IMG/VR virus record: IMGVR_UViG_3300028887_000103
Location: 1-64,000 of that record
Reading direction: 5' to 3' (one strand)
DNA length: 64,000 nucleotides
Source of the DNA: a virus
Lineage: Duplodnaviria > Caudoviricetes
Part shown: piece after piece, positions 43,898-55,701 of the stretch
Layout of the letters: each line of letters starts with the position of its first letter
Numbering within the stretch: the first letter of the stretch is position 1
Program-made: the position numbers and the translations under genes
Notes under the pieces: model-generated
Seen by the model: the letters and a program-made list of their open reading frames with translations, nothing else
What the model was told of the DNA's origin: nothing
The model's database searches: none

Positions 43898-44524
43898 ATG
43901 GTTACGATAATTACTTTAGTTAGCAATCGGAAAGGATTTGAAAATCTGAAGAGAAATCTAGTCAGTTTTGAATCTGATTGGAAACTTGGGGTGGATATTC
44001 TTTGTATTGTTTCAGACTATGACTTATATCTAGAATGTCGGAATTTCTTGCACGAAAATGTAGATAGAGGGGAATGTCTAGTTGTCTTTGACCAAGATGC
44101 TACCTTAAAGTCTGGAAAAGAATATCTGGATACCAAGAATGAATATGTGTTCTTACTTGCCGAGAATGTCAGAGTTCCGAGTGGTGGTATCACTAAACTA
44201 TACAAAAACTATCTTGAAAAACCACAGGCAGGGTTCATCACAGGGGAGTGGAACCAATTCCCGACTGTTCGCTGGGTCAAAGATATCTATGGTGCTCCGA
44301 AGTATATCTATTCAAATGAGCCGTCACCTTATGGGTTAAGAATGGATATAGATGTGGCAGAAGTCCACGGCATAATGACAAAAACTAGTCTATACAAAGA
44401 ATTGTTCTGTGCAGAGGATTTAGATGGTTACGGTAGTCATAGTTTCGGGATACGATTAAGAAGGCAAGGATACAAAAATTATATTAACACAGGGGTAGAA
44501 TACAAATATGGAGGTAACGAGTGA
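43898..44524 (+). CDS. Divergent GT-A (family 2-like) glycosyltransferase
   Basis: TIITLVSNR..LKRNL; EYVFLLAENV (DxD position degenerate); FGIRLRRQGYKNYINTGV. Confidence 0.5.
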   Translation: MVTIITLVSNRKGFENLKRNLVSFESDWKLGVDILCIVSDYDLYLECRNFLHENVDRGECLVVFDQDATLKSGKEYLDTKNEYVFLLAENVRVPSGGITKLYKNYLEKPQAGFITGEWNQFPTVRWVKDIYGAPKYIYSNEPSPYGLRMDIDVAEVHGIMTKTSLYKELFCAEDLDGYGSHSFGIRLRRQGYKNYINTGVEYKYGGNE

Positions 44525-45405
44525 AAATAATTATGTTGAAGGGGTTGCCTGCGAGTGGAAAATCTACTTGGGCTAGGGAGCGTCAAAAGGAAGGTGGCAA
44601 TTATCTAGTCATAAGCAAAGATGAAATTCGTAAGATGTTCGGCGGGTATGCCCCCAAGCGAGAGAAAGATGTCTTAAGAGTAAGAAATGAACTGATAAAA
44701 CTGGGCATTAAACTACGCAAGAATGTAATAGTGGATGATACCAACTTGAACATCAAGCACGAAAGATATATCAGACAATTGGCAAATGAACTAGGGGTGA
44801 AGTTTGAAATCAACGATGACTTTATGGAAGTTCCACCAGAAGAATGTATAAAACGAGATTTACACCGTGGAGAAAAGGCCGTCGGTGCTAGCGTGATTTG
44901 GGATATGTATTATAGATGGGTGGCACCAGACCCACAAGTCAATTTAGATGTAAACTTTGACAAACCGAGGTGTGTGATTTGTGATGTCGATGGCACATTG
45001 GCTCTGAATACAGAGGGCAGAAGTTTCTACGATTTGTCCAGAGTTAACGAGGATACGGCTGACCCGTTTGTCTCTTGCGTAGTAGATGCTCTGTATAACT
45101 ATGGCACTGAAATCAATGGGGATAAATACCCTAGCATAATTATCTTGAGTGGAAGGGAAGAAATAAGTAGAGAAGCCACGGAGGGGTGGCTTAAACAATA
45201 TGGTATTCCTTATGACCAAGTGATAATGCGAGAAACTGGGGATAAACGGAGTGATAGTATTGTGAAGCGAGAACTCTATGAAAAATATGTAGAGCCAAAC
45301 TACTGTGTCTTGGGAGTGATAGATGATAGACCTAGCGTCTGTGCTGTCTGGCGTAGTTTAGGCTTAAGAGTTGCTCAAGTTGGTAACCCATATATTGATT
45401 TCTGA
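44521..45405 (+). CDS. pseT: Polynucleotide 5'-kinase/3'-phosphatase (T4 PseT-like)
   Basis: GLPASGKST Walker A; VIVDDTNL; HAD DVDGTL; LSGRE; IDDRP. Confidence 0.92.
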   Translation: MKIIMLKGLPASGKSTWARERQKEGGNYLVISKDEIRKMFGGYAPKREKDVLRVRNELIKLGIKLRKNVIVDDTNLNIKHERYIRQLANELGVKFEINDDFMEVPPEECIKRDLHRGEKAVGASVIWDMYYRWVAPDPQVNLDVNFDKPRCVICDVDGTLALNTEGRSFYDLSRVNEDTADPFVSCVVDALYNYGTEINGDKYPSIIILSGREEISREATEGWLKQYGIPYDQVIMRETGDKRSDSIVKRELYEKYVEPNYCVLGVIDDRPSVCAVWRSLGLRVAQVGNPYIDF

Positions 45406-48549: not shown

Positions 48550-49188
48550 GTGAAAAAAAATCTTAAAGATGTCAATATGGGCTGGGTTGCGACATCTGCT
48601 ATAGTGGCTTATGCAATTATAGCGATTGCGACTGATATGTTCGCAAACAAAATGCTAAGCATCGGAAGTCTAACGCTAGCAGGCGGTATTCTGATGATTC
48701 CGTTCAGTTTCACCATTCGTGACTTAATCCACAAATTGATTGGGTTTGACAATGTGAAGAAGGTGGTCTGGACTACTGCAATTGTAAATCTAGTGGTAGC
48801 GATATTACTTATCGTTCTAGATGTTATTCCGTCGGCAGTTCCGGGCCAACAAGAGGCTTGGCACGCTTTGATGGGTGCTAGTTGGCGAGTGATAATCGCT
48901 TCGTTCATAGCACAACTTGTGGCTGATTTAGGTAATACCTATGTCTACCAATGGGTGTGGAATAAACTTGGCGATAAACACGTTTGGTTGAGGACTATCA
49001 TTTCAAACTTGCCAGCGTGTTTTCTAGATTCGGCGATATTCAGTTATATTGCGTTTCTAGGGGTGCTTGACCCAAACATTATCTGGGCGAGTGTTATAAG
49101 TTCATTCGCAGTAAAGTATGTCCTGTCGATTGTAGCGACACCACTTACTTACTTGAGTGAAACAAAGGAAAAAGAAAAGAAGAAATGA
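48550..49188 (+). CDS. yhhQ: Queuosine-precursor (preQ0/preQ1) transporter, YhhQ/VUT family
   Basis: FANKML..GILMIPFSFTIRDLIH..RVIIASFIAQLV..LRTIISN..DSAIFSYIAF. Confidence 0.88.
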   Translation: MKKNLKDVNMGWVATSAIVAYAIIAIATDMFANKMLSIGSLTLAGGILMIPFSFTIRDLIHKLIGFDNVKKVVWTTAIVNLVVAILLIVLDVIPSAVPGQQEAWHALMGASWRVIIASFIAQLVADLGNTYVYQWVWNKLGDKHVWLRTIISNLPACFLDSAIFSYIAFLGVLDPNIIWASVISSFAVKYVLSIVATPLTYLSETKEKEKKK

Positions 49189-49230: not shown

Positions 49231-49473
49231 ATGAGTCTAATTGAAGCAACAGGTCTAATAGCAACACTCCTAGTCTTTGTATCGTTCCTACCCAAGAATA
49301 TCGTGTTTATCCGATGGGCTAACTTGATAGGAAGTATATTCTTCGTCATCTATGGCTTTGGGATAGGTGCGTTCTGGACGGGGTTTATGAATGCTTGTTT
49401 GATACTTGTTCAGGCTTATCACTTAACTAAAATCTATATGGAAAGGAAAAAGAATGGCAGGAAAGATAAATAG
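49231..49473 (+). CDS. Small three-TM membrane protein (YgjV/PQ-loop-like)
   Basis: FIRWANLIGSIFFVIYG motif. Confidence 0.65.
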   Translation: MSLIEATGLIATLLVFVSFLPKNIVFIRWANLIGSIFFVIYGFGIGAFWTGFMNACLILVQAYHLTKIYMERKKNGRKDK

Positions 49474-49816
49474 TCTTACTGAAGAAGAGCAAGCAAAATG
49501 GCTTGACAATACTTATGGGATTGACGAGATTAAATTCGTCGAGGAAATACAGCATCATTGTCCACTAGGTGAGCAGGTCGGAGTGACAACTTATAATGTG
49601 GAAGTCGTGCCTGGAAAGCACTTGGCAGAGTTAATCCAACTGCACTGGGATATTCAGAAACTAATGGGACAAACATTCACACTTGAAAGTGGTGCTGCTG
49701 AAGTTCTAGAGATAGTGAAAAAAGCGTATGTTGACCCTGAATATGTCTGTGTGAGAGCCAAGTGTCCACCCAACCGACATATGAGCGTGGAAGTATCAGT
49801 GGAATACGAGGGTTAA
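49454..49816 (+). CDS. QueF-like tunnel-fold protein
   Basis: HHCPLG (Cys-Pro), FTLE, YVCVRAK; inside deazaguanine cluster. Confidence 0.6.
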   Translation: MAGKINSLTEEEQAKWLDNTYGIDEIKFVEEIQHHCPLGEQVGVTTYNVEVVPGKHLAELIQLHWDIQKLMGQTFTLESGAAEVLEIVKKAYVDPEYVCVRAKCPPNRHMSVEVSVEYEG

Positions 49817-50638
49817 ATGTTACTGTTCTTCGCCGCTACAGAAGCAAGACAACACAGGGACGCTGCAATCGAGGGAGGTGTTAAAAACTCCCTCCAGTCT
49901 TTTTACACACTAGGTTGCGGTAAAGGAGTTCCAGATAACAAGAAGTTTGAGAATTATCTACTTGATTCGGGTGGGTATTCTGCTAGAAAGCACGGTATAG
50001 ACATCAATGTCGAAGATTATGCTAGGTATCTCAATAACTACAAGATTAAAGTGGCGTTCAATCTAGACTTCAAGGACAATGACAAAAGTCTTCGGAATCA
50101 GAAATATCTTGAAACCCATACCGATACTTATGTGCTTCCTGTTTACCACGGGACAGAATGGATGAATCCGAAGTGGGATGGGTTGCTTGAATACTATATG
50201 GAACACTACCCATATATTGCTTTGGGTGGTATGGCAGGCAGGGAAAACTCGAAGGAAAATCTACCGAGATTTTTGAATTATGTATTCAGCAGAACTAAAA
50301 ACAAAACCCAAGTTCACGGTCTAGGAATGACTAGTGAGCCACTGCTTAAGCAATATCCGTTCTATTCTGTCGATTCCACGAGTTGGATGAGTCCAGCATT
50401 GTTCGCCAACAGCAGAATACACGGCGAGAAGTGGATGAAGGCTAACGCTAAAAGCAGACACTTCACCTATAACATCATAGATGAGATGCCGTTCTGGTTT
50501 AAACTTGAAAAAGATGTTACGAAACTCTGGGAACAAAGAGGGGTGAGGTGGGGAAAGTTTGATTATGATATATTCATATCAAAGAGGAAGAAAGAAATTC
50601 CTACTTTTGAAGAATGGAGAAATCATAATATAATATAA
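49817..50638 (+). CDS. dpdA: DpdA-like DNA-guanine transglycosylase, paralogue 1
   Basis: LLDSGGYS, AFNLD, PVYHG, IALGGMAG, VHGLGM, VDSTSW (TGT-fold motifs). Confidence 0.82.
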   Translation: MLLFFAATEARQHRDAAIEGGVKNSLQSFYTLGCGKGVPDNKKFENYLLDSGGYSARKHGIDINVEDYARYLNNYKIKVAFNLDFKDNDKSLRNQKYLETHTDTYVLPVYHGTEWMNPKWDGLLEYYMEHYPYIALGGMAGRENSKENLPRFLNYVFSRTKNKTQVHGLGMTSEPLLKQYPFYSVDSTSWMSPALFANSRIHGEKWMKANAKSRHFTYNIIDEMPFWFKLEKDVTKLWEQRGVRWGKFDYDIFISKRKKEIPTFEEWRNHNII

Positions 50639-50640
50639 CT

Positions 50641-51156
50641 ATGGCAAGTGGTGTTTATATTATAAAAGTAGGCAAAACTAAATATGTCGGAGCATCTGGC
50701 AATCTAAAGGTTAGAAAAGAAATACATTTTAATCAATTAAAAAGAGGAAAGCATTATAATCCATATTTACAAGAAGCCTACAACAAAAGTCAGGAATTTC
50801 GATTTGAAATAATAGAAGAGTGTGAAAATTCTTTTGAAAGGGAAAGGTGGTGGGTAGAGAGAATAGGAATAGAAAAATTAGCAAATGAAATTCTACCAGA
50901 CGGGGTTAGTGGGATTCCAAGCGAGAGGATGAATAAGAAGCGTTCAGATTCTCTAAAAAAGTATTATGAAACCCACGATGGTAATAAAACTTGGTTAGGG
51001 AAGACCAGGTCAGAAGAAACAAAACAAAAACTCCGAGAGCATCATAACCCTAAGAGCAATCCAAAAGGGTGTGTTCGGTCCGAGGAAACAAAGAGGAAAA
51101 TCTCAGAATCAATTAAGAAGTGGCATCAGGAGAGGAAAAATGCAGGAAAAAGCTAA
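50641..51156 (+). CDS. GIY-YIG homing endonuclease with NUMOD3 repeats
   Basis: SGVYII..YVGAS; RSEETKQKL / RSEETKRKIS. Confidence 0.88.
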   Translation: MASGVYIIKVGKTKYVGASGNLKVRKEIHFNQLKRGKHYNPYLQEAYNKSQEFRFEIIEECENSFERERWWVERIGIEKLANEILPDGVSGIPSERMNKKRSDSLKKYYETHDGNKTWLGKTRSEETKQKLREHHNPKSNPKGCVRSEETKRKISESIKKWHQERKNAGKS

Positions 51157-51796
51157 AGAAATATTTGAGTTTGACCCTAAAAAACTTTTGAAGGTTCCTA
51201 TTTCGGAGGTTCGGGAAAATAATTGGAATCCAAAAGACCCAAATAGCCCAGAATATGAAAAAGTAAAAAGGTCTATCGAAATCAATGGTTTAACTCAACC
51301 AATTTTTGTTAGAGAGAATAGTGATGGGGATACAAAATATGAAGTCTTAGACGGAGCTCATAGATTTAGAAGTTGCAAAGAATTGGGGTTCAAGGAAATT
51401 TACATCTATAACGAAGGTGTTGTCCCAGACCCTTTGGCAAAAAGTTTCACTATCTATCATCAAATTCAGGTTCCGTTCGATGAAGCAGAATTGGCACCAA
51501 TCGTGATGGAGTTAAACAACTTGCAGATGGAGTTACCTTACAACGAACTAGAGATAGATGGTTTTAGGAACTTGGCTAGTTTTGATTTTGATAAGGCTTA
51601 CGAAAGTCAAACACCGTTGAAAGAAGACAATGACAAAGATGAGGAAATCTTAACTATAAAGATGACGGCAGACCAGATAGAAAAGGTCAATAACGCTATC
51701 GAGGAAGTGAAGGCTTCTAAAAAAGTAAAAGAAGGGGAGGCATTGACAATGTTATGCGAAGGAGGGCTAGATGTTATATTTTCTGACGAATCTTAA
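51140..51796 (+). CDS. ParB-N-terminal-domain protein 1
   Basis: VRENNWNPK..GLTQPIFVR..YEVLDGAHR. Confidence 0.85.
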   Translation: MQEKAKEIFEFDPKKLLKVPISEVRENNWNPKDPNSPEYEKVKRSIEINGLTQPIFVRENSDGDTKYEVLDGAHRFRSCKELGFKEIYIYNEGVVPDPLAKSFTIYHQIQVPFDEAELAPIVMELNNLQMELPYNELEIDGFRNLASFDFDKAYESQTPLKEDNDKDEEILTIKMTADQIEKVNNAIEEVKASKKVKEGEALTMLCEGGLDVIFSDES

Positions 51797-52676
51797 GAAA
51801 CAGGCACCGTGGCAAATAGACTATGAAAATCTTTACCAGAAATACTTGACCGTGCCATATAAAGTTCTTACAGATAGAAGTCAATTGAGTGAGTTGACCG
51901 ATAAAGATATTCTTTGGATACAACACTTTTTGGATATTGATACTCCAGAAACTAGGGCTTGCAAGGCTCGTAAGATGGCTCAGGTCAATGGAACAGCAGT
52001 CAACCCGTATATTGGTGCCGTGGATAAGAAACAGGAAGAAATTGAATACAACGAGATTTTAGACATTGCTTTGGTTTTTGATAGCGTAATCTCTTCCACA
52101 ATGAAACACGCTTATCCGAAGGTAGATTTTTGGCGAGTAGGGTTCCCGATTCCAGAAATAAAACTTCCTCAAGTAGAAAAAAAGAAACAAATCTGCATTG
52201 CTGGAAGGCTGGATGCTTACAAGAATGTGAATATAAATATCTGGCTGACAGAGAATTTACGACGAGAAGGGTATAAAGTAATCTTCTGTTACCCAGATAA
52301 AGATGTCCAAGCAGAAAGAGTCCAACTTTACAAACCAGAGAAGTTTGACAATCTTGAGTTCAGACGCTGTAAGAAGGAAGAATGGCTACAGATTGCCAAC
52401 GAGAGTGAGTTCTATCTTTTGACAAGTTTCGATGATGTCTGTTCTGTGAGTATGTGGGAAGCCTACTATGCTGGGTGCTATTTACTTATTCCAGACATTC
52501 AAACCGGAATTATCAGGTATCCTGCGTATGTCAATCCACAGTTCCGTGCGTTTGACCGAGATTCTTTGGAATGTTTAGTGGAAACAAAACCAAAACAAAC
52601 CGTCAATACAATCAATATAATACCTCAAAAATGCGTAGAAAGGTTGGAGGAATACTTAAATGAAGAAAGTCTATGA
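51771..52676 (+). CDS. GT-B (family 4-like) glycosyltransferase
   Basis: IAGRLDAYKN..FYLLTSFDD..SMWEAYYAG. Confidence 0.7.
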   Translation: MLYFLTNLKKQAPWQIDYENLYQKYLTVPYKVLTDRSQLSELTDKDILWIQHFLDIDTPETRACKARKMAQVNGTAVNPYIGAVDKKQEEIEYNEILDIALVFDSVISSTMKHAYPKVDFWRVGFPIPEIKLPQVEKKKQICIAGRLDAYKNVNINIWLTENLRREGYKVIFCYPDKDVQAERVQLYKPEKFDNLEFRRCKKEEWLQIANESEFYLLTSFDDVCSVSMWEAYYAGCYLLIPDIQTGIIRYPAYVNPQFRAFDRDSLECLVETKPKQTVNTINIIPQKCVERLEEYLNEESL

Positions 52677-53691
52677 TTTAGATGGGACTATCTGTGAAAA
52701 TGGAAGTCCAGAAAACTTTGCAAATGCAATTGCTTTTAAGGAAGTGATTGCTGAAATAAACAATTCTTACGATGCTGGCGATGAAATCGTGATTCACACT
52801 GCTAGGCTAGCAAAAGACCGAGAAGTGACAAAAGAATGGCTTAAAAAGAATGGAGTAAAGTATCACGAGTTGCTAATGGGCAAACCAACGGCTGACCTCT
52901 ATATTGATGATAAAGCCCTTCCTTACATTCCAGCAAGAGGGCCACAACTCAATAGGAAGAAGTTGGCTGTCTGTATCTCTGGAGGGATGGATTCTTACAT
53001 CGCTTACTGGTATGCCATCTATGAAAAAGGATATGACCCTGAAGATATTATCTGTCTAAACTTTGATATCGGGCATCCTTACAGAAAGAAAGAACAGGAA
53101 TGTTTGAAAAAGTTAGAAATTCCTTATGAAACTATCACGGTGGATATTTTGCGACCAGAGTTTGGCAATATGCCAGACGAGGAAAATTATATTATCCCGG
53201 CAAGGAATATGATTTTTGCGTCTATAGCATCTGGATTTGCTGAACGGGTGTGGATAATGGGAATGAAATACGAAGACCATTACTTTATGCTAGACAAGAA
53301 TACAAACTTCTTTAAGGGTGCGTCTTTCATTTTAAGTCAAGCAACAGGAAACCCTACAGTAGTGGAAACCCCGTTCAAGAACTTGACAAAAACTGACATC
53401 ATTAACTGGGCAAAGAACTTCAAACTTCCTCACCTGCACGATACGACTTCTTGCTATAACCCAGACCATCAAAGATGTGGTAAATGTTCGCTATGCTTTA
53501 AGAGATATATCGCTATGAAGGCTTGTGGTCTAGACGAAGAGTTTGCTACTGACCCTACCCAATCAGAAGAGGCAAAGCGTCTAGTGGAGGCTTACAGAGA
53601 AGCAGTGAAAAATAATGATTACACCCACTACCAGAAGGATAGAATTGAAGAAACCTTCCGAGTGCTGGGTTTGGATGAAAAAGGATACTAG
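52660..53691 (+). CDS. queC: HAD phosphatase fused to QueC-like 7-cyano-7-deazaguanine synthase
   Basis: N-terminal DLDGT..HTAR..KP..YIDDK; C-terminal SGGMDS, PARNMIF, SCY..CGKCSLC. Confidence 0.85.
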   Translation: MKKVYDLDGTICENGSPENFANAIAFKEVIAEINNSYDAGDEIVIHTARLAKDREVTKEWLKKNGVKYHELLMGKPTADLYIDDKALPYIPARGPQLNRKKLAVCISGGMDSYIAYWYAIYEKGYDPEDIICLNFDIGHPYRKKEQECLKKLEIPYETITVDILRPEFGNMPDEENYIIPARNMIFASIASGFAERVWIMGMKYEDHYFMLDKNTNFFKGASFILSQATGNPTVVETPFKNLTKTDIINWAKNFKLPHLHDTTSCYNPDHQRCGKCSLCFKRYIAMKACGLDEEFATDPTQSEEAKRLVEAYREAVKNNDYTHYQKDRIEETFRVLGLDEKGY

Positions 53692-54498
53692 ATGCTAATT
53701 TTCTTTGCAGGAGCAGAAGGAGAAGACTTTAGAATAATTCTAAAGCAGGCAGGAGCCAAGAATGTGCTTCAATCGTTTTGGGCTTTAAGACCAGACAAAC
53801 CACCGAAGACAGAGGCGTTTGACAATTATTTACTAGATTCAGGTGGGTTTTCGGCAAGGCAACACGGAGTTGAAATAAGTGTCCAAGAGTATGCTAACTA
53901 CTTGAATATGTATAAAATCAAGTATGCTTTCAACTTGGATGTTCTAGACTTAAAGACGAGTTTGAAAAACCAAGACTACCTAGTCAGAAATACCAACACT
54001 TACATTATGCCAGTCTATCACGGCAATGAATGGATTGACCCTAAAACCAGAGATTTGCTTGATTATTATATCGAGTGCTTCCCATACATAGCCCTAGGAG
54101 GTATGGCAGGCAGAGAAAATAGCAAAGCCAACCTTCCGAAGTTTCTAAATTATGTATTCAAGAGAACTAGAGATAAGACAAAAGTCCACGGGCTAGGGAT
54201 GACGGGGGTGACCTTCCTTCGCAAATACCCGTTCTTCTCGGTAGATTCAACGAGTTGGATTTGCATAAACCGATATGCCCAGAGTAAAGTCTATTCCCAC
54301 GAGATGACCAGAGTTCGGCTTAACAACAGGTCGTGGAGGGAAAATCTTGTTCCAGAAGCAAAACATTGGATTGGAGTGCAAAATGAAATGACAAGGCTAT
54401 GGGATAGACGGGGTATCGTCTGGGGAAACCTCGACTATGATAAACTGATGGCAGAAAGAAAGGTTATGACCTATGAAGAATGGAAGGAAAAGAAATGA
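53692..54498 (+). CDS. dpdA: DpdA-like DNA-guanine transglycosylase, paralogue 2
   Basis: LLDSGGFS, AFNLD, PVYHG, IALGGMAG, VHGLGM, VDSTSW. Confidence 0.82.
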   Translation: MLIFFAGAEGEDFRIILKQAGAKNVLQSFWALRPDKPPKTEAFDNYLLDSGGFSARQHGVEISVQEYANYLNMYKIKYAFNLDVLDLKTSLKNQDYLVRNTNTYIMPVYHGNEWIDPKTRDLLDYYIECFPYIALGGMAGRENSKANLPKFLNYVFKRTRDKTKVHGLGMTGVTFLRKYPFFSVDSTSWICINRYAQSKVYSHEMTRVRLNNRSWRENLVPEAKHWIGVQNEMTRLWDRRGIVWGNLDYDKLMAERKVMTYEEWKEKK

Positions 54499-55076
54499 GA
54501 GATTTTAACCCAGATAACATACAGATTGTGGGTATAGATGAGGTTCGGCCTAACGGCTGGAACCCTAAACTTGAAAATACACCAGAATATCAAAAGATTG
54601 TAGAAAGTATCCAAGTCAATGGCTTCAAGTCCCCTATTATCGTGCGAGAAGTAGAAGGAGAAGACGGCTATGAAATCTGTGACGGTTGTCAGAGATGGAA
54701 TGCCGCTAAACAACTAGGCTTTGACAAAATCTACATTTACAACTTGGGTAAGATTTCAGAAAGTGAAGCGAAGTCTATCACTATCTGGATGGAAACTCAA
54801 GTCAAGTTTGATGAGTTGCAACTTGCACCACTTGTGGCAGAATTAAACGATTTGCAAATGACAATGCCATACACGGAAGATGAAGTTCAAGATTACATAA
54901 ATATGCTTCACTTCGATTTTGAGGGTGATGGCAAAATCAGTTTGAGTGTTAAATGCACTCCAGAACAGTTCGATAAGATTAAAGAATGTCTGAATGTCTA
55001 TACTTACAACAATGAAGTGGAGGAAGACAAGGCTTTGGTGGAAATGGTAAAACTAGGAGTGAAGAGGTATGAGTAG
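54495..55076 (+). CDS. ParB-N-terminal-domain protein 2
   Basis: VRPNGWNPK..GFKSPIIVR..YEICDGCQR. Confidence 0.8.
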   Translation: MRDFNPDNIQIVGIDEVRPNGWNPKLENTPEYQKIVESIQVNGFKSPIIVREVEGEDGYEICDGCQRWNAAKQLGFDKIYIYNLGKISESEAKSITIWMETQVKFDELQLAPLVAELNDLQMTMPYTEDEVQDYINMLHFDFEGDGKISLSVKCTPEQFDKIKECLNVYTYNNEVEEDKALVEMVKLGVKRYE

Positions 55077-55701
55077 TGATTTTGACCCAAAAAATCTGAA
55101 GAAGATTAAAATATCTGAAATGCTGTTTAACGACTGGAATCCGAAGGAGAATGAAAAAGACTATGAGAAGGTCAAGAAGTCGATAGTCGTCAATGGATTG
55201 GTCACTCCAATTTTTGTGCGTAAAACAGATGAGGGCTATGAGGTTGTCGATGGTAATCAGAGGGCAAGGGCTTGCAGAGAGTTAGGTTACACAGAAATCT
55301 ATGTCTATGATTTAGGTGAAATCAGTGAGGCAGAGGCAAAACAACTAGTTCTTTATCTTCAGATTCAAGTTCCGTTCGTAACTGATATGCTAGCACCAAT
55401 CGCTGTGGAATTGGAAAGTCTAGGTATGGAGTTGCCCTACAATGAAAAAGAGATGCAGAAGTTTCGTGATTTAGAAGCGTTTGATATGGACACGGCTTAT
55501 GAAGACGAAGAACCAGTGCCAGAGCCAGAAAAACCAGAAGACGAGATAAAAGAAAAACTTAAAACCTACAAGATTAAACTCCAACCAGAAGATTTCGATA
55601 TAGTGCGAGATGCTATTGATAAAGTCATAATGTCCGAGAATGTGAATGAAGGCAGGGCTTTGGAGTTGCTTTTGCTTGTGGCGATGGAATGGGAAAGTTA
55701 G
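55069..55701 (+). CDS. ParB-N-terminal-domain protein 3
   Basis: FNDWNPK..GLVTPIFVR..YEVVDGNQR. Confidence 0.8.
   Translation: MSSDFDPKNLKKIKISEMLFNDWNPKENEKDYEKVKKSIVVNGLVTPIFVRKTDEGYEVVDGNQRARACRELGYTEIYVYDLGEISEAEAKQLVLYLQIQVPFVTDMLAPIAVELESLGMELPYNEKEMQKFRDLEAFDMDTAYEDEEPVPEPEKPEDEIKEKLKTYKIKLQPEDFDIVRDAIDKVIMSENVNEGRALELLLLVAMEWES

Follow-up and report, generated by a model that had tools for sequence, protein, structure and literature searches.

Record IMGVR_UViG_3300028887_000103 of IMG/VR is an 80,372-bp virus record (Duplodnaviria; Caudoviricetes), complete by CheckV, and its first 64 kb (positions 1 to 64,000, referred to here as the window) contain the two genes with which this account is concerned. 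They occupy the interval 51771-53691 as overlapping open reading frames (ORFs) on the + strand. The first, of 301 amino acids (51771-52676), resembles a glycosyltransferase of the GT-B fold, and the second, of 343 amino acids (52660-53691), joins a HAD phosphatase domain to a divergent PP-loop ATP pyrophosphatase domain of the QueC family. The ATG of the fusion at 52660 is preceded by GGAGG and sits 17 nt ahead of the TGA stop of the upstream ORF, an overlap that the earlier interpretation of this DNA from its letters (the sequence-only reading) had correctly described, and the gene for a DpdA-like DNA guanine transglycosylase begins at the very next base after the stop codon of the fusion. 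The surrounding genes lie on the same strand in the order YhhQ/Vut_1, 120-aa protein, DpdA 1, GIY-YIG, ParB 1, the 301-aa GT-B protein, the HAD-QueC-like fusion, DpdA 2, ParB 2 and ParB 3 (Table 1).

Table 1. Genes and domains around the HAD-QueC-like fusion, by position in the window
Feature	Position	Strand	Basis
Vut_1/YhhQ-family membrane transporter	48550..49188	+	Pfam Vut_1 E 1.2e-34; found too in related loci L002 and L003
120-aa protein, weak QueF-II (preQ1 synthase) resemblance	49454..49816	+	TIGR03139 E 0.014, far below cut-off
DpdA-like DNA guanine transglycosylase, copy 1	49817..50638	+	phrog_887 E 7e-37
GIY-YIG/NUMOD3 homing endonuclease	50641..51156	+	Pfam NUMOD3 and GIY-YIG; phrog_314 E 1.6e-14
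ParB_N protein 1	51071..51796	+	Pfam ParB_N E 1.3e-10; end overlaps glycosyltransferase start
301-aa GT-B fold glycosyltransferase-like protein	51771..52676	+	AF2 fold match; family without Pfam model
HAD phosphatase domain, residues 1-90 of 343-aa fusion	52660..52929	+	phrog_1238 E 1e-20
Divergent QueC-family PP-loop ATP pyrophosphatase domain, residues 98-343	52951..53691	+	Pfam QueC E 2.9e-24
DpdA-like DNA guanine transglycosylase, copy 2	53692..54498	+	phrog_887 E 1.2e-38; weak NCBIfam DpdA match
ParB_N protein 2	54480..55076	+	Pfam ParB_N E 7.8e-11
ParB_N protein 3	55069..55701	+	Pfam ParB_N E 9.6e-10

The fusion is one uninterrupted open frame, in which HAD and PNK-phosphatase PHROGs match residues 3-87 and the Pfam QueC model (PF06508) matches residues 104-287 with 86.2 bits against a gathering cut-off of 22. 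The motifs that the sequence-only reading had listed are all found, namely D6-L-D8-G-T10, T47, K75 and D83-D84 in the HAD domain, and S107-GGMDS112 and C265-x7-C273-xx-C276-xx-C279 in the QueC part. The AlphaFold (AF2) model of the whole protein has a pLDDT of 89.2 and a pTM of 0.76. An assembly or frameshift artefact was considered and rejected, as proteins of equal length at 95, 88 and 75% identity occur in independent metagenomes.

The QueC-like domain shares with canonical QueC (3BL5; E. coli signature, PMC13329287) the PP-loop fold, the SGGxDS and PxRN motifs, the four zinc cysteines and the essential tyrosine that follows the first of them (Y266). In a set of 185 family members, the R182 and N183 of the I179-PARN183 motif are present in 183, as are the zinc cysteines. 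The closest structures to this part of the protein, found with the family profile and the AF2 model, are B. subtilis QueC (3bl5) and Pectobacterium QueC, followed by Cap9 and QatC, and its PDB matches include 3bl5, 2pg3 and the Cap9 entry 9nto. In contrast to the canonical enzyme, however, both substrate motifs are changed, the spacing that follows the first zinc cysteine is 7 residues rather than the 8 of C(x)8CxxCxxC, and there is a conserved, family-specific C-terminal extension (D..HY...R..ET) that forms an added helix pair. The substrate motifs of E. coli QueC, YxQxHxxE and YPDC, contain the essential residues Y35 and Y131 (PMC13329287). The first is replaced by I137-G-H-P-Y141-xx-K-E145 in the window protein and by (L/I/Y)G(Q/H)PYxxKE in the family, where the position equivalent to Y35 is L, I, M or F in most members and Y in 28 of the 185. 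The second becomes M210-L-D212-K213 (xxDK in the family), with M at the Y131-equivalent position in the window protein and M, V, G or A across the family in the residue census of the 185 members. The bit scores are correspondingly low, at 71.7 against the NCBIfam equivalog TIGR00364 (cut-off 150.3), 26.9 against PRK11106 (cut-off 378) and 21.5 against the QatC model (cut-off 280).

On these sequence comparisons the domain is a separate clade with altered substrate motifs, for which the name 'QueC' used in the sequence-only reading is too strong; the family assignment and the ATP and zinc sites stand, but the two motifs essential in E. coli are gone and the equivalog score is not reached. Since the substrate motifs are altered, the product is suggested not to be simply preQ0. 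The protein could nevertheless be an ordinary preQ0 synthase, converting 7-carboxy-7-deazaguanine (CDG) to preQ0 with the HAD as a passenger, such that the DNA would contain dPreQ0 or dPreQ1, with the HAD and GT-B proteins working in an unrelated or loosely linked sugar pathway that makes, for example, donors for another modification or for a surface glycan. The retained SGGxDS, PxRN, Y266 and Cys4 zinc site agree with such an enzyme, as do the top structural match to B. subtilis QueC, the presence of the canonical Y or Q of the first motif in a quarter to a half of the members, and the finding that phages with genes for FolE, QueD and QueE have no other QueC-family gene. Set against this are the I/L/M and M found here at the positions of the essential Y35 and Y131 (PMC13329287), the score below the equivalog cut-off, the persistence of the GT-B/HAD/QueC-like triad in a phage lacking genes for CDG synthesis, and the HAD fusions in both orders together with fusions to glycosyltransferases, described below, which are hard to credit to chance. 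A plain preQ0 synthase is considered unlikely.

The HAD domain is of the capless (C0) type and AfhF/EcbF-BcbF-like. Its catalytic residues D6, D8, T47, K75, D83 and D84 are accompanied by an invariant R49, and in a comparison of 82 domains drawn from N-terminal, C-terminal and split forms D6, D8, T/S47, K75, D83 and D84 are each conserved in at least 79, with Arg at position 49 near-invariant. Judged by these residues, the domain does not look inactive. The family profile matches PDB entries 9iqw (AfhF of phage HY126) with E 3e-10 and 1xpj with E 8e-10, and Foldseek aligns about 97 columns of 9iqw with 32% identity at probability 1.0, AfhF being the nearest characterised and solved relative. 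The NCBIfam capsule biosynthesis phosphatase model TIGR01689 matches at E 6e-8 with 32.6 bits, below its cut-off of 162, which by sequence makes the domain a relative of that subfamily and not a member. When the HAD alone was used as a tblastn query it found RB69 ORF051c and about 400 T-even-like and other phages.

AfhF and RB69 gp51 are, like the window domain, small capless phage HAD proteins with the same catalytic motifs (PMC13326640). Proteins of this type are D-arabinose-1,5-bisphosphate phosphatases, performing the D-arabinofuranose-1,5-bisphosphate 5-phosphatase step, and the arabinose 1-phosphate so formed goes into UDP-arabinose and the arabinosylation of DNA. The last enzyme of this pathway is a glycosyltransferase whose acceptor is a modified DNA base (PMC13326640). 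Whereas AfhF is a stand-alone protein, encoded beside the kinase/pyrophosphorylase AfhE and serving the decoration of 5-hydroxycytosine, the window HAD is fused to a QueC-like enzyme, lies in a deazaguanine setting and has no AfhE-like gene detected with it. Because AfhF is its nearest characterised relative, a sugar phosphate is the most plausible substrate by analogy, and of the idea in the sequence-only reading that a phosphorylated intermediate is dephosphorylated, it is the sugar-phosphate version that gains from the comparison.

Three other roles may be weighed for a phosphatase in this position. A PNKP-type (polynucleotide kinase-phosphatase type) DNA-end phosphatase was judged less likely than an AfhF-type sugar phosphatase, since AfhF and 1xpj are matched far more strongly than PNKP (HAD_PNKP, E 0.002). 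A broader version of this idea is a nucleotide-level module as in toyocamycin formation, with the base joined to phosphoribosyl pyrophosphate by a phosphoribosyltransferase and the HAD acting as a 5'-nucleotidase or as a PNKP-like nucleic-acid-end phosphatase. Toyocamycin clusters do pair a QueC (ToyM) with a phosphoribosyltransferase and a HAD phosphatase (10.64898/2026.04.15.718813), AfhF acts on a furanose 5-phosphate, the same position as in a 5'-nucleotide, and Pribosyltran genes occur near the triad in two lineages (L019 and L012), in addition to the weak HAD matches to PNKP phosphatase domains. These two lineages are nonetheless the only ones of ten with a phosphoribosyltransferase beside the triad, DpdA enzymes exchange free bases and not nucleotides (PMC10516641), and the weakness of the PNKP matches applies here too, which leaves the nucleotide-level module improbable.

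The least probable of the explanations considered is that the HAD is an inorganic pyrophosphatase or general helper, with no sugar substrate, pulling forward the two ATP-consuming, pyrophosphate-releasing steps of the QueC-like domain. PP-loop enzymes release pyrophosphate, some HAD enzymes are pyrophosphatases, and either order of fusion would serve equally well. The nearest relatives, though, are sugar bisphosphate phosphatases, host pyrophosphatase is plentiful, and the invariant GT-B partner and the QueC-like-glycosyltransferase fusions would be left unexplained.

The other relatives of the HAD domain are mostly fused to nucleotidyltransferases (PF01467, PF02348), which raises the further idea that a deazaguanine is not the substrate of the QueC-like domain. 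The domain would instead adenylylate the sugar 1-phosphate made by the HAD, standing in for the nucleotidyltransferase that acts after AfhF-type phosphatases, and the triad would be a self-contained unit of sugar activation and transfer. A pyrophosphorylase step does come after AfhF, no enzyme of PF01467 or PF00483 is found in the complete phage, and PP-loop enzymes are able to transfer AMP to oxyanions, ATP sulfurylase CysD being an example. Nevertheless, we know of no PP-loop enzyme that forms nucleotide sugars, the domain keeps the Cys4 zinc site, PxRN and the overall architecture of QueC, and the family is tied to CDG synthesis genes in phages that have no other QueC. This idea is rated below the nucleotide-level module and only slightly above the pyrophosphatase.

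The 301-aa protein encoded upstream has no match in Pfam, PHROG or NCBIfam, even at E 10, and this includes the Pfam models used for GT4 (Glycos_transf_1, Glyco_transf_4 and Glyco_trans_1_4). Its family profile, searched against PDB sequences up to E 10, likewise gives no match, and it was identified by fold comparison only. An AlphaFold model made with 12 homologues (pLDDT 89.9) is matched by Foldseek in the PDB to GT-B enzymes at E 5e-9 to 1e-6 and probability 1.0, including GtfA, SenB, TarM, MshA, BshA and PimB (E about 5e-9, TM 0.6-0.68), glycogen synthase and OtsA, many of which are GT4 members, and in BFVD to viral GT1/GT4-type proteins. Within the family, G145-R146-x4-K151 is invariant and D222-x7-E230 stands where EX7E is expected, a correspondence read by eye; these resemble the GRxxxxK/EX7E donor-binding motifs of GT4/GT5 enzymes. 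The 'GT4' label of the sequence-only reading is thus supported in part, by the predicted fold and by motif resemblance, but not by family models.

The fusion is not confined to this assembly. A word-indexed search gave about 25 full-length relatives at 46-95% identity, with shorter QueC-only forms at 50-66%, and when 1.84 billion representatives were searched exhaustively with a profile, 309 clusters were recovered at E<=1e-30. The 185 members in hand were classed by domain hidden Markov models. The HAD stands in front of the QueC-like domain in 55 and behind it in 23, the QueC-like domain is alone in 81 and is fused to a DXD-type glycosyltransferase in two, and the rest have other extensions. 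The two glycosyltransferase fusions (P0132 and P0160) are of the DXD (Gly_transf_sug) kind, and P0160 lies close to FolE. In the lineages L005/L010, L009 and L011 there is no fused HAD, and a separate HAD ORF of 100-109 aa overlaps the start of the QueC-like gene. By this census the fusion is common among the relatives, and the HAD and QueC-like domains have been joined on more than one occasion. One of the HAD-behind forms, P0184, has its QueC-like protein interrupted by an intein ahead of the C-terminal HAD.

The family looks viral or metagenomic in distribution. A megablast of GenBank phages with the whole module gave no match, tblastn with the fusion found only QueC-like genes at about 27% identity, none of which spans the HAD, and a scan of 185,579 prokaryote species genomes with family patterns found no relative. 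Some members (P0021 at L019:8001-9062, P0020 and P0032) are HAD-QueC-like genes with in-frame TGA codons, ten in L019, and the database translation of TGA as Trp places W at conserved Gly positions (DIDW for DxDG, FDLW for FDIG). The pattern fits genetic code 25, in which TGA encodes Gly, and by that sign phages of Gracilibacteria or Absconditabacteria. These recoded phages keep the same GT-B/HAD-QueC-like/DpdA/ParB synteny.

In all 10 lineages for which DNA is available, a GT-B homologue lies directly upstream of the HAD/QueC-like gene, and the usual neighbours of this set are DpdA, ParB, FolE, QueD and QueE. Together with the fusions in both orders, the split forms and the QueC-like-glycosyltransferase fusions, this constancy supports the proposal of the sequence-only reading that the HAD, the QueC-like domain and the glycosyltransferase are functionally coupled. 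A homologue of the window DpdA was found by BLASTP in six of nine lineage groups, three of these matches being weak. FolE was found in six groups by BLAST clustering and, in the large phages, at other places in the genome, and several related groups have QueD and/or QueE, with exactly one QueC-family gene per related virus record.

Some of the related loci have features of their own. The DpdA homologue at L010:10799-11606 is broken into two ORFs, of 137 and 108 aa, with about 70 nt between them; a sequencing error, a frameshift or a small insertion could be the cause. In phages of 135-154 kb (L004:5118-16600; L006/L007:6965-14500) the triad stands within a larger cluster, which in L004/L008 includes a gene resembling UDP-glucose dehydrogenase, another small HAD, a radical SAM enzyme similar to lysine aminomutase and an acetyltransferase, besides several proteins without a family match. 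L006 and L007 have in common a gene in a similar place upstream of the triad. This cluster looks like a more elaborate modification pathway. For the large phages and L013, the genes that follow the triad were scanned against PHROGs with no useful result.

The reading favoured here, with a probability of about 0.5, is that the 343-aa protein is a bifunctional enzyme of a phage 7-deazaguanine DNA-hypermodification module, the core of which is the triad of GT-B protein, AfhF-like HAD and divergent QueC-family domain, and that the resulting DNA base is glycosylated or similarly decorated. The triad probably supplies phage DNA with a 7-deazaguanine that bears a sugar or some other decoration, a base still undescribed. 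From the domain identities, residue conservation, fusions and synteny, the following substrates, order of steps and final product may be proposed. The QueC-like domain would use ATP to adenylate the carboxylate of CDG and hand it to ammonia or to another amine, the HAD domain would strip the phosphate from a sugar phosphate or sugar bisphosphate in the manner of AfhF, and the GT-B enzyme would transfer the sugar. DpdA, together with ParB, would place the base in DNA, with the decoration made either before or after insertion, and the decorated base would protect the DNA from host nucleases.

The choice of CDG as substrate is supported by the single QueC-family gene in each related record, by FolE in most of them and by QueD or QueE in several. 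Both protein families are mostly acidic, a weak hint at small molecules rather than DNA as substrates. Moreover, because the triad is retained in a phage with a YhhQ-type transporter and no CDG synthesis genes, the QueC-like domain is suggested to do more than make preQ0. A more specific form of the proposal, held tentatively and at somewhat less than even odds, places the sugar on the C7 carboxyl-derived group or on the exocyclic amine of the base and gives the QueC-like domain a changed nucleophile or substrate. It might be a CDG-amine ligase whose amine substrate, a phosphorylated amino alcohol or amino sugar, is then unmasked by the fused HAD or, more radically, an adenylyltransferase for the sugar 1-phosphate that the HAD produces.

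Several observations weigh against the glycosylated-deazaguanine reading. In 81 of the 185 members the QueC-like domain has no fused HAD, and the distant relative L018 has neither HAD nor GT-B nearby; because of L018, the triad marks a sub-clade and not the whole QueC-like clade. No phrog_887 or TGT-type DpdA was found in groups C and D (the 135-154-kb phages, for which records G002 and G003 were searched), and BLASTP with the window DpdA found none at the group H locus. No sugar-nucleotide pyrophosphorylase of the PF01467 or PF00483 type is found in the complete phage, which leaves the sugar donor unexplained, and none of the cultured phages searched by tblastn with the GT-B protein carries that family. 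We know of no phosphorylated intermediate of the deazaguanine pathway after QueD. Finally, a fusion is evidence of shared use, from which neither consecutive steps nor the channelling envisaged in the sequence-only reading follows.

The module is most readily compared with the phage 7-deazaguanine systems already described, which consist of FolE/QueD/QueE/QueC or Gat-QueC with DpdA, as in CAjan, 9g, phiSM and phiST (PMC6884629, PMC10516641). They have in common a DpdA-like protein with an adjacent ParB-like one and a QueC-family enzyme, and in relatives of the window phage FolE, QueD and QueE stand in one operon. The nearest cultured DpdA to that of the window belongs to the Cellulophaga phage phiSM group, DpdA copy 2 being 26% identical to the phiSM DpdA region. 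The described systems differ in having no dedicated GT-B or HAD phosphatase, and phage QueC is known in fusion with a glutamine amidotransferase rather than with a HAD. In turn, the window phage has no FolE, QueD or QueE and carries two DpdA and three ParB genes.

Precedent for a QueC fold with a different acceptor comes from the QueC-family enzymes Cap9 and QatC, which carry out deazaguanylation by attaching CDG to the N-termini of proteins (PMC13279940, 10.1101/2025.04.06.647259). They transfer adenylated CDG to an amine that is not ammonia, and Cap9 (9nto) is a top structural match to the window domain. Unlike these host defence systems, the window has no CD-NTase, Cap10, QatA, QatB or QatD partner, its neighbours being DpdA, ParB and GT-B, and it would represent a phage counter-defence module. 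In actinomycete 7-deazapurine pathways, the synthesis of preQ0 or CDG is likewise combined with a glycosyltransferase, a HAD or an amide-forming enzyme. The GT4-type HuiG glycosylates a preQ0-derived free base in huimycin formation, an amide ligase decorates CDG in that of roseomycin, and toyocamycin formation uses a phosphoribosyltransferase with a HAD (10.64898/2026.04.15.718813), and each proposed step therefore has chemical precedent. These products, however, are bacterial secondary metabolites and not DNA bases, made by unfused enzymes with no DpdA and with no demonstrable homology to the phage GT-B family.

Across the whole 80-kb record Pfam models find no FolE, QueD, radical-SAM QueE or QueF. 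The module is headed by the Vut_1/YhhQ-family transporter, the E. coli YhhQ member of which is a preQ0 importer, and by the weakly QueF-II-like 120-aa protein, which contains a CPLGEQ motif, has 60% identical homologues in L002 and L003, and is restricted to the window phage and its closest relatives. This arrangement suggests that a host deazaguanine precursor is taken up or scavenged, and under the favoured reading the window phage would obtain that precursor from the host or via the YhhQ-type transporter. The two DpdA copies are 52% identical (BLASTP), and the module has two DpdA paralogues and three ParB_N proteins where its relatives have one of each, a duplication that could provide two target-sequence specificities or two different bases.

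ParB_N protein 1, whose homologues come after DpdA in related loci, is a candidate DpdB-like partner of DpdA. The homing endonuclease is an insertion between DpdA copy 1 and this protein, with none at that site in related loci. Because the listed GTG start of ParB_N protein 1 at 51071 falls inside the homing endonuclease gene, its real start is probably some 25-30 codons further downstream, where the alignment of homologues begins. Elsewhere in the window, a 294-aa protein (44521-45405) is homologous to kinase/HAD_PNKP proteins (polynucleotide kinase-phosphatase type) of related phages, and it constitutes a second, separate HAD-family phosphatase of the window phage.

Literature searches gave no description of a glycosyltransferase or HAD in a phage deazaguanine system, of a HAD-QueC fusion or of the product of the triad, and the words HAD and phosphatase are absent from a 2026 survey of the QueC family. 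The census of fusions in both orders, the fusions of QueC-like domains to glycosyltransferases, the relationship to AfhF and the divergence of motifs in the QueC-like clade are new here. To our knowledge, the characterised sugar decorations of DNA are all on pyrimidines, as in glucosylated hydroxymethylcytosine (glucosyl-hmC), arabinosyl-5-hydroxycytosine and base J, and the 7-deazaguanine bases of DNA known to us carry small groups only. A sugar-bearing 7-deazaguanine would, if true, be the first glycosylated purine-type base in DNA and would involve a new reaction for the QueC fold, widening the catalytic range of a family that was recently shown to include protein deazaguanylation. The fusion itself offers an experimental handle, as one protein with two activities. 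A conserved and repeatedly fused set of genes in deazaguanine operons, found in phages of several sizes that include readers of TGA as Gly, points to a new class of purine hypermodification, which would bear on the evasion of restriction and CRISPR, and DNA of this kind could cause sequencing errors in these phages.

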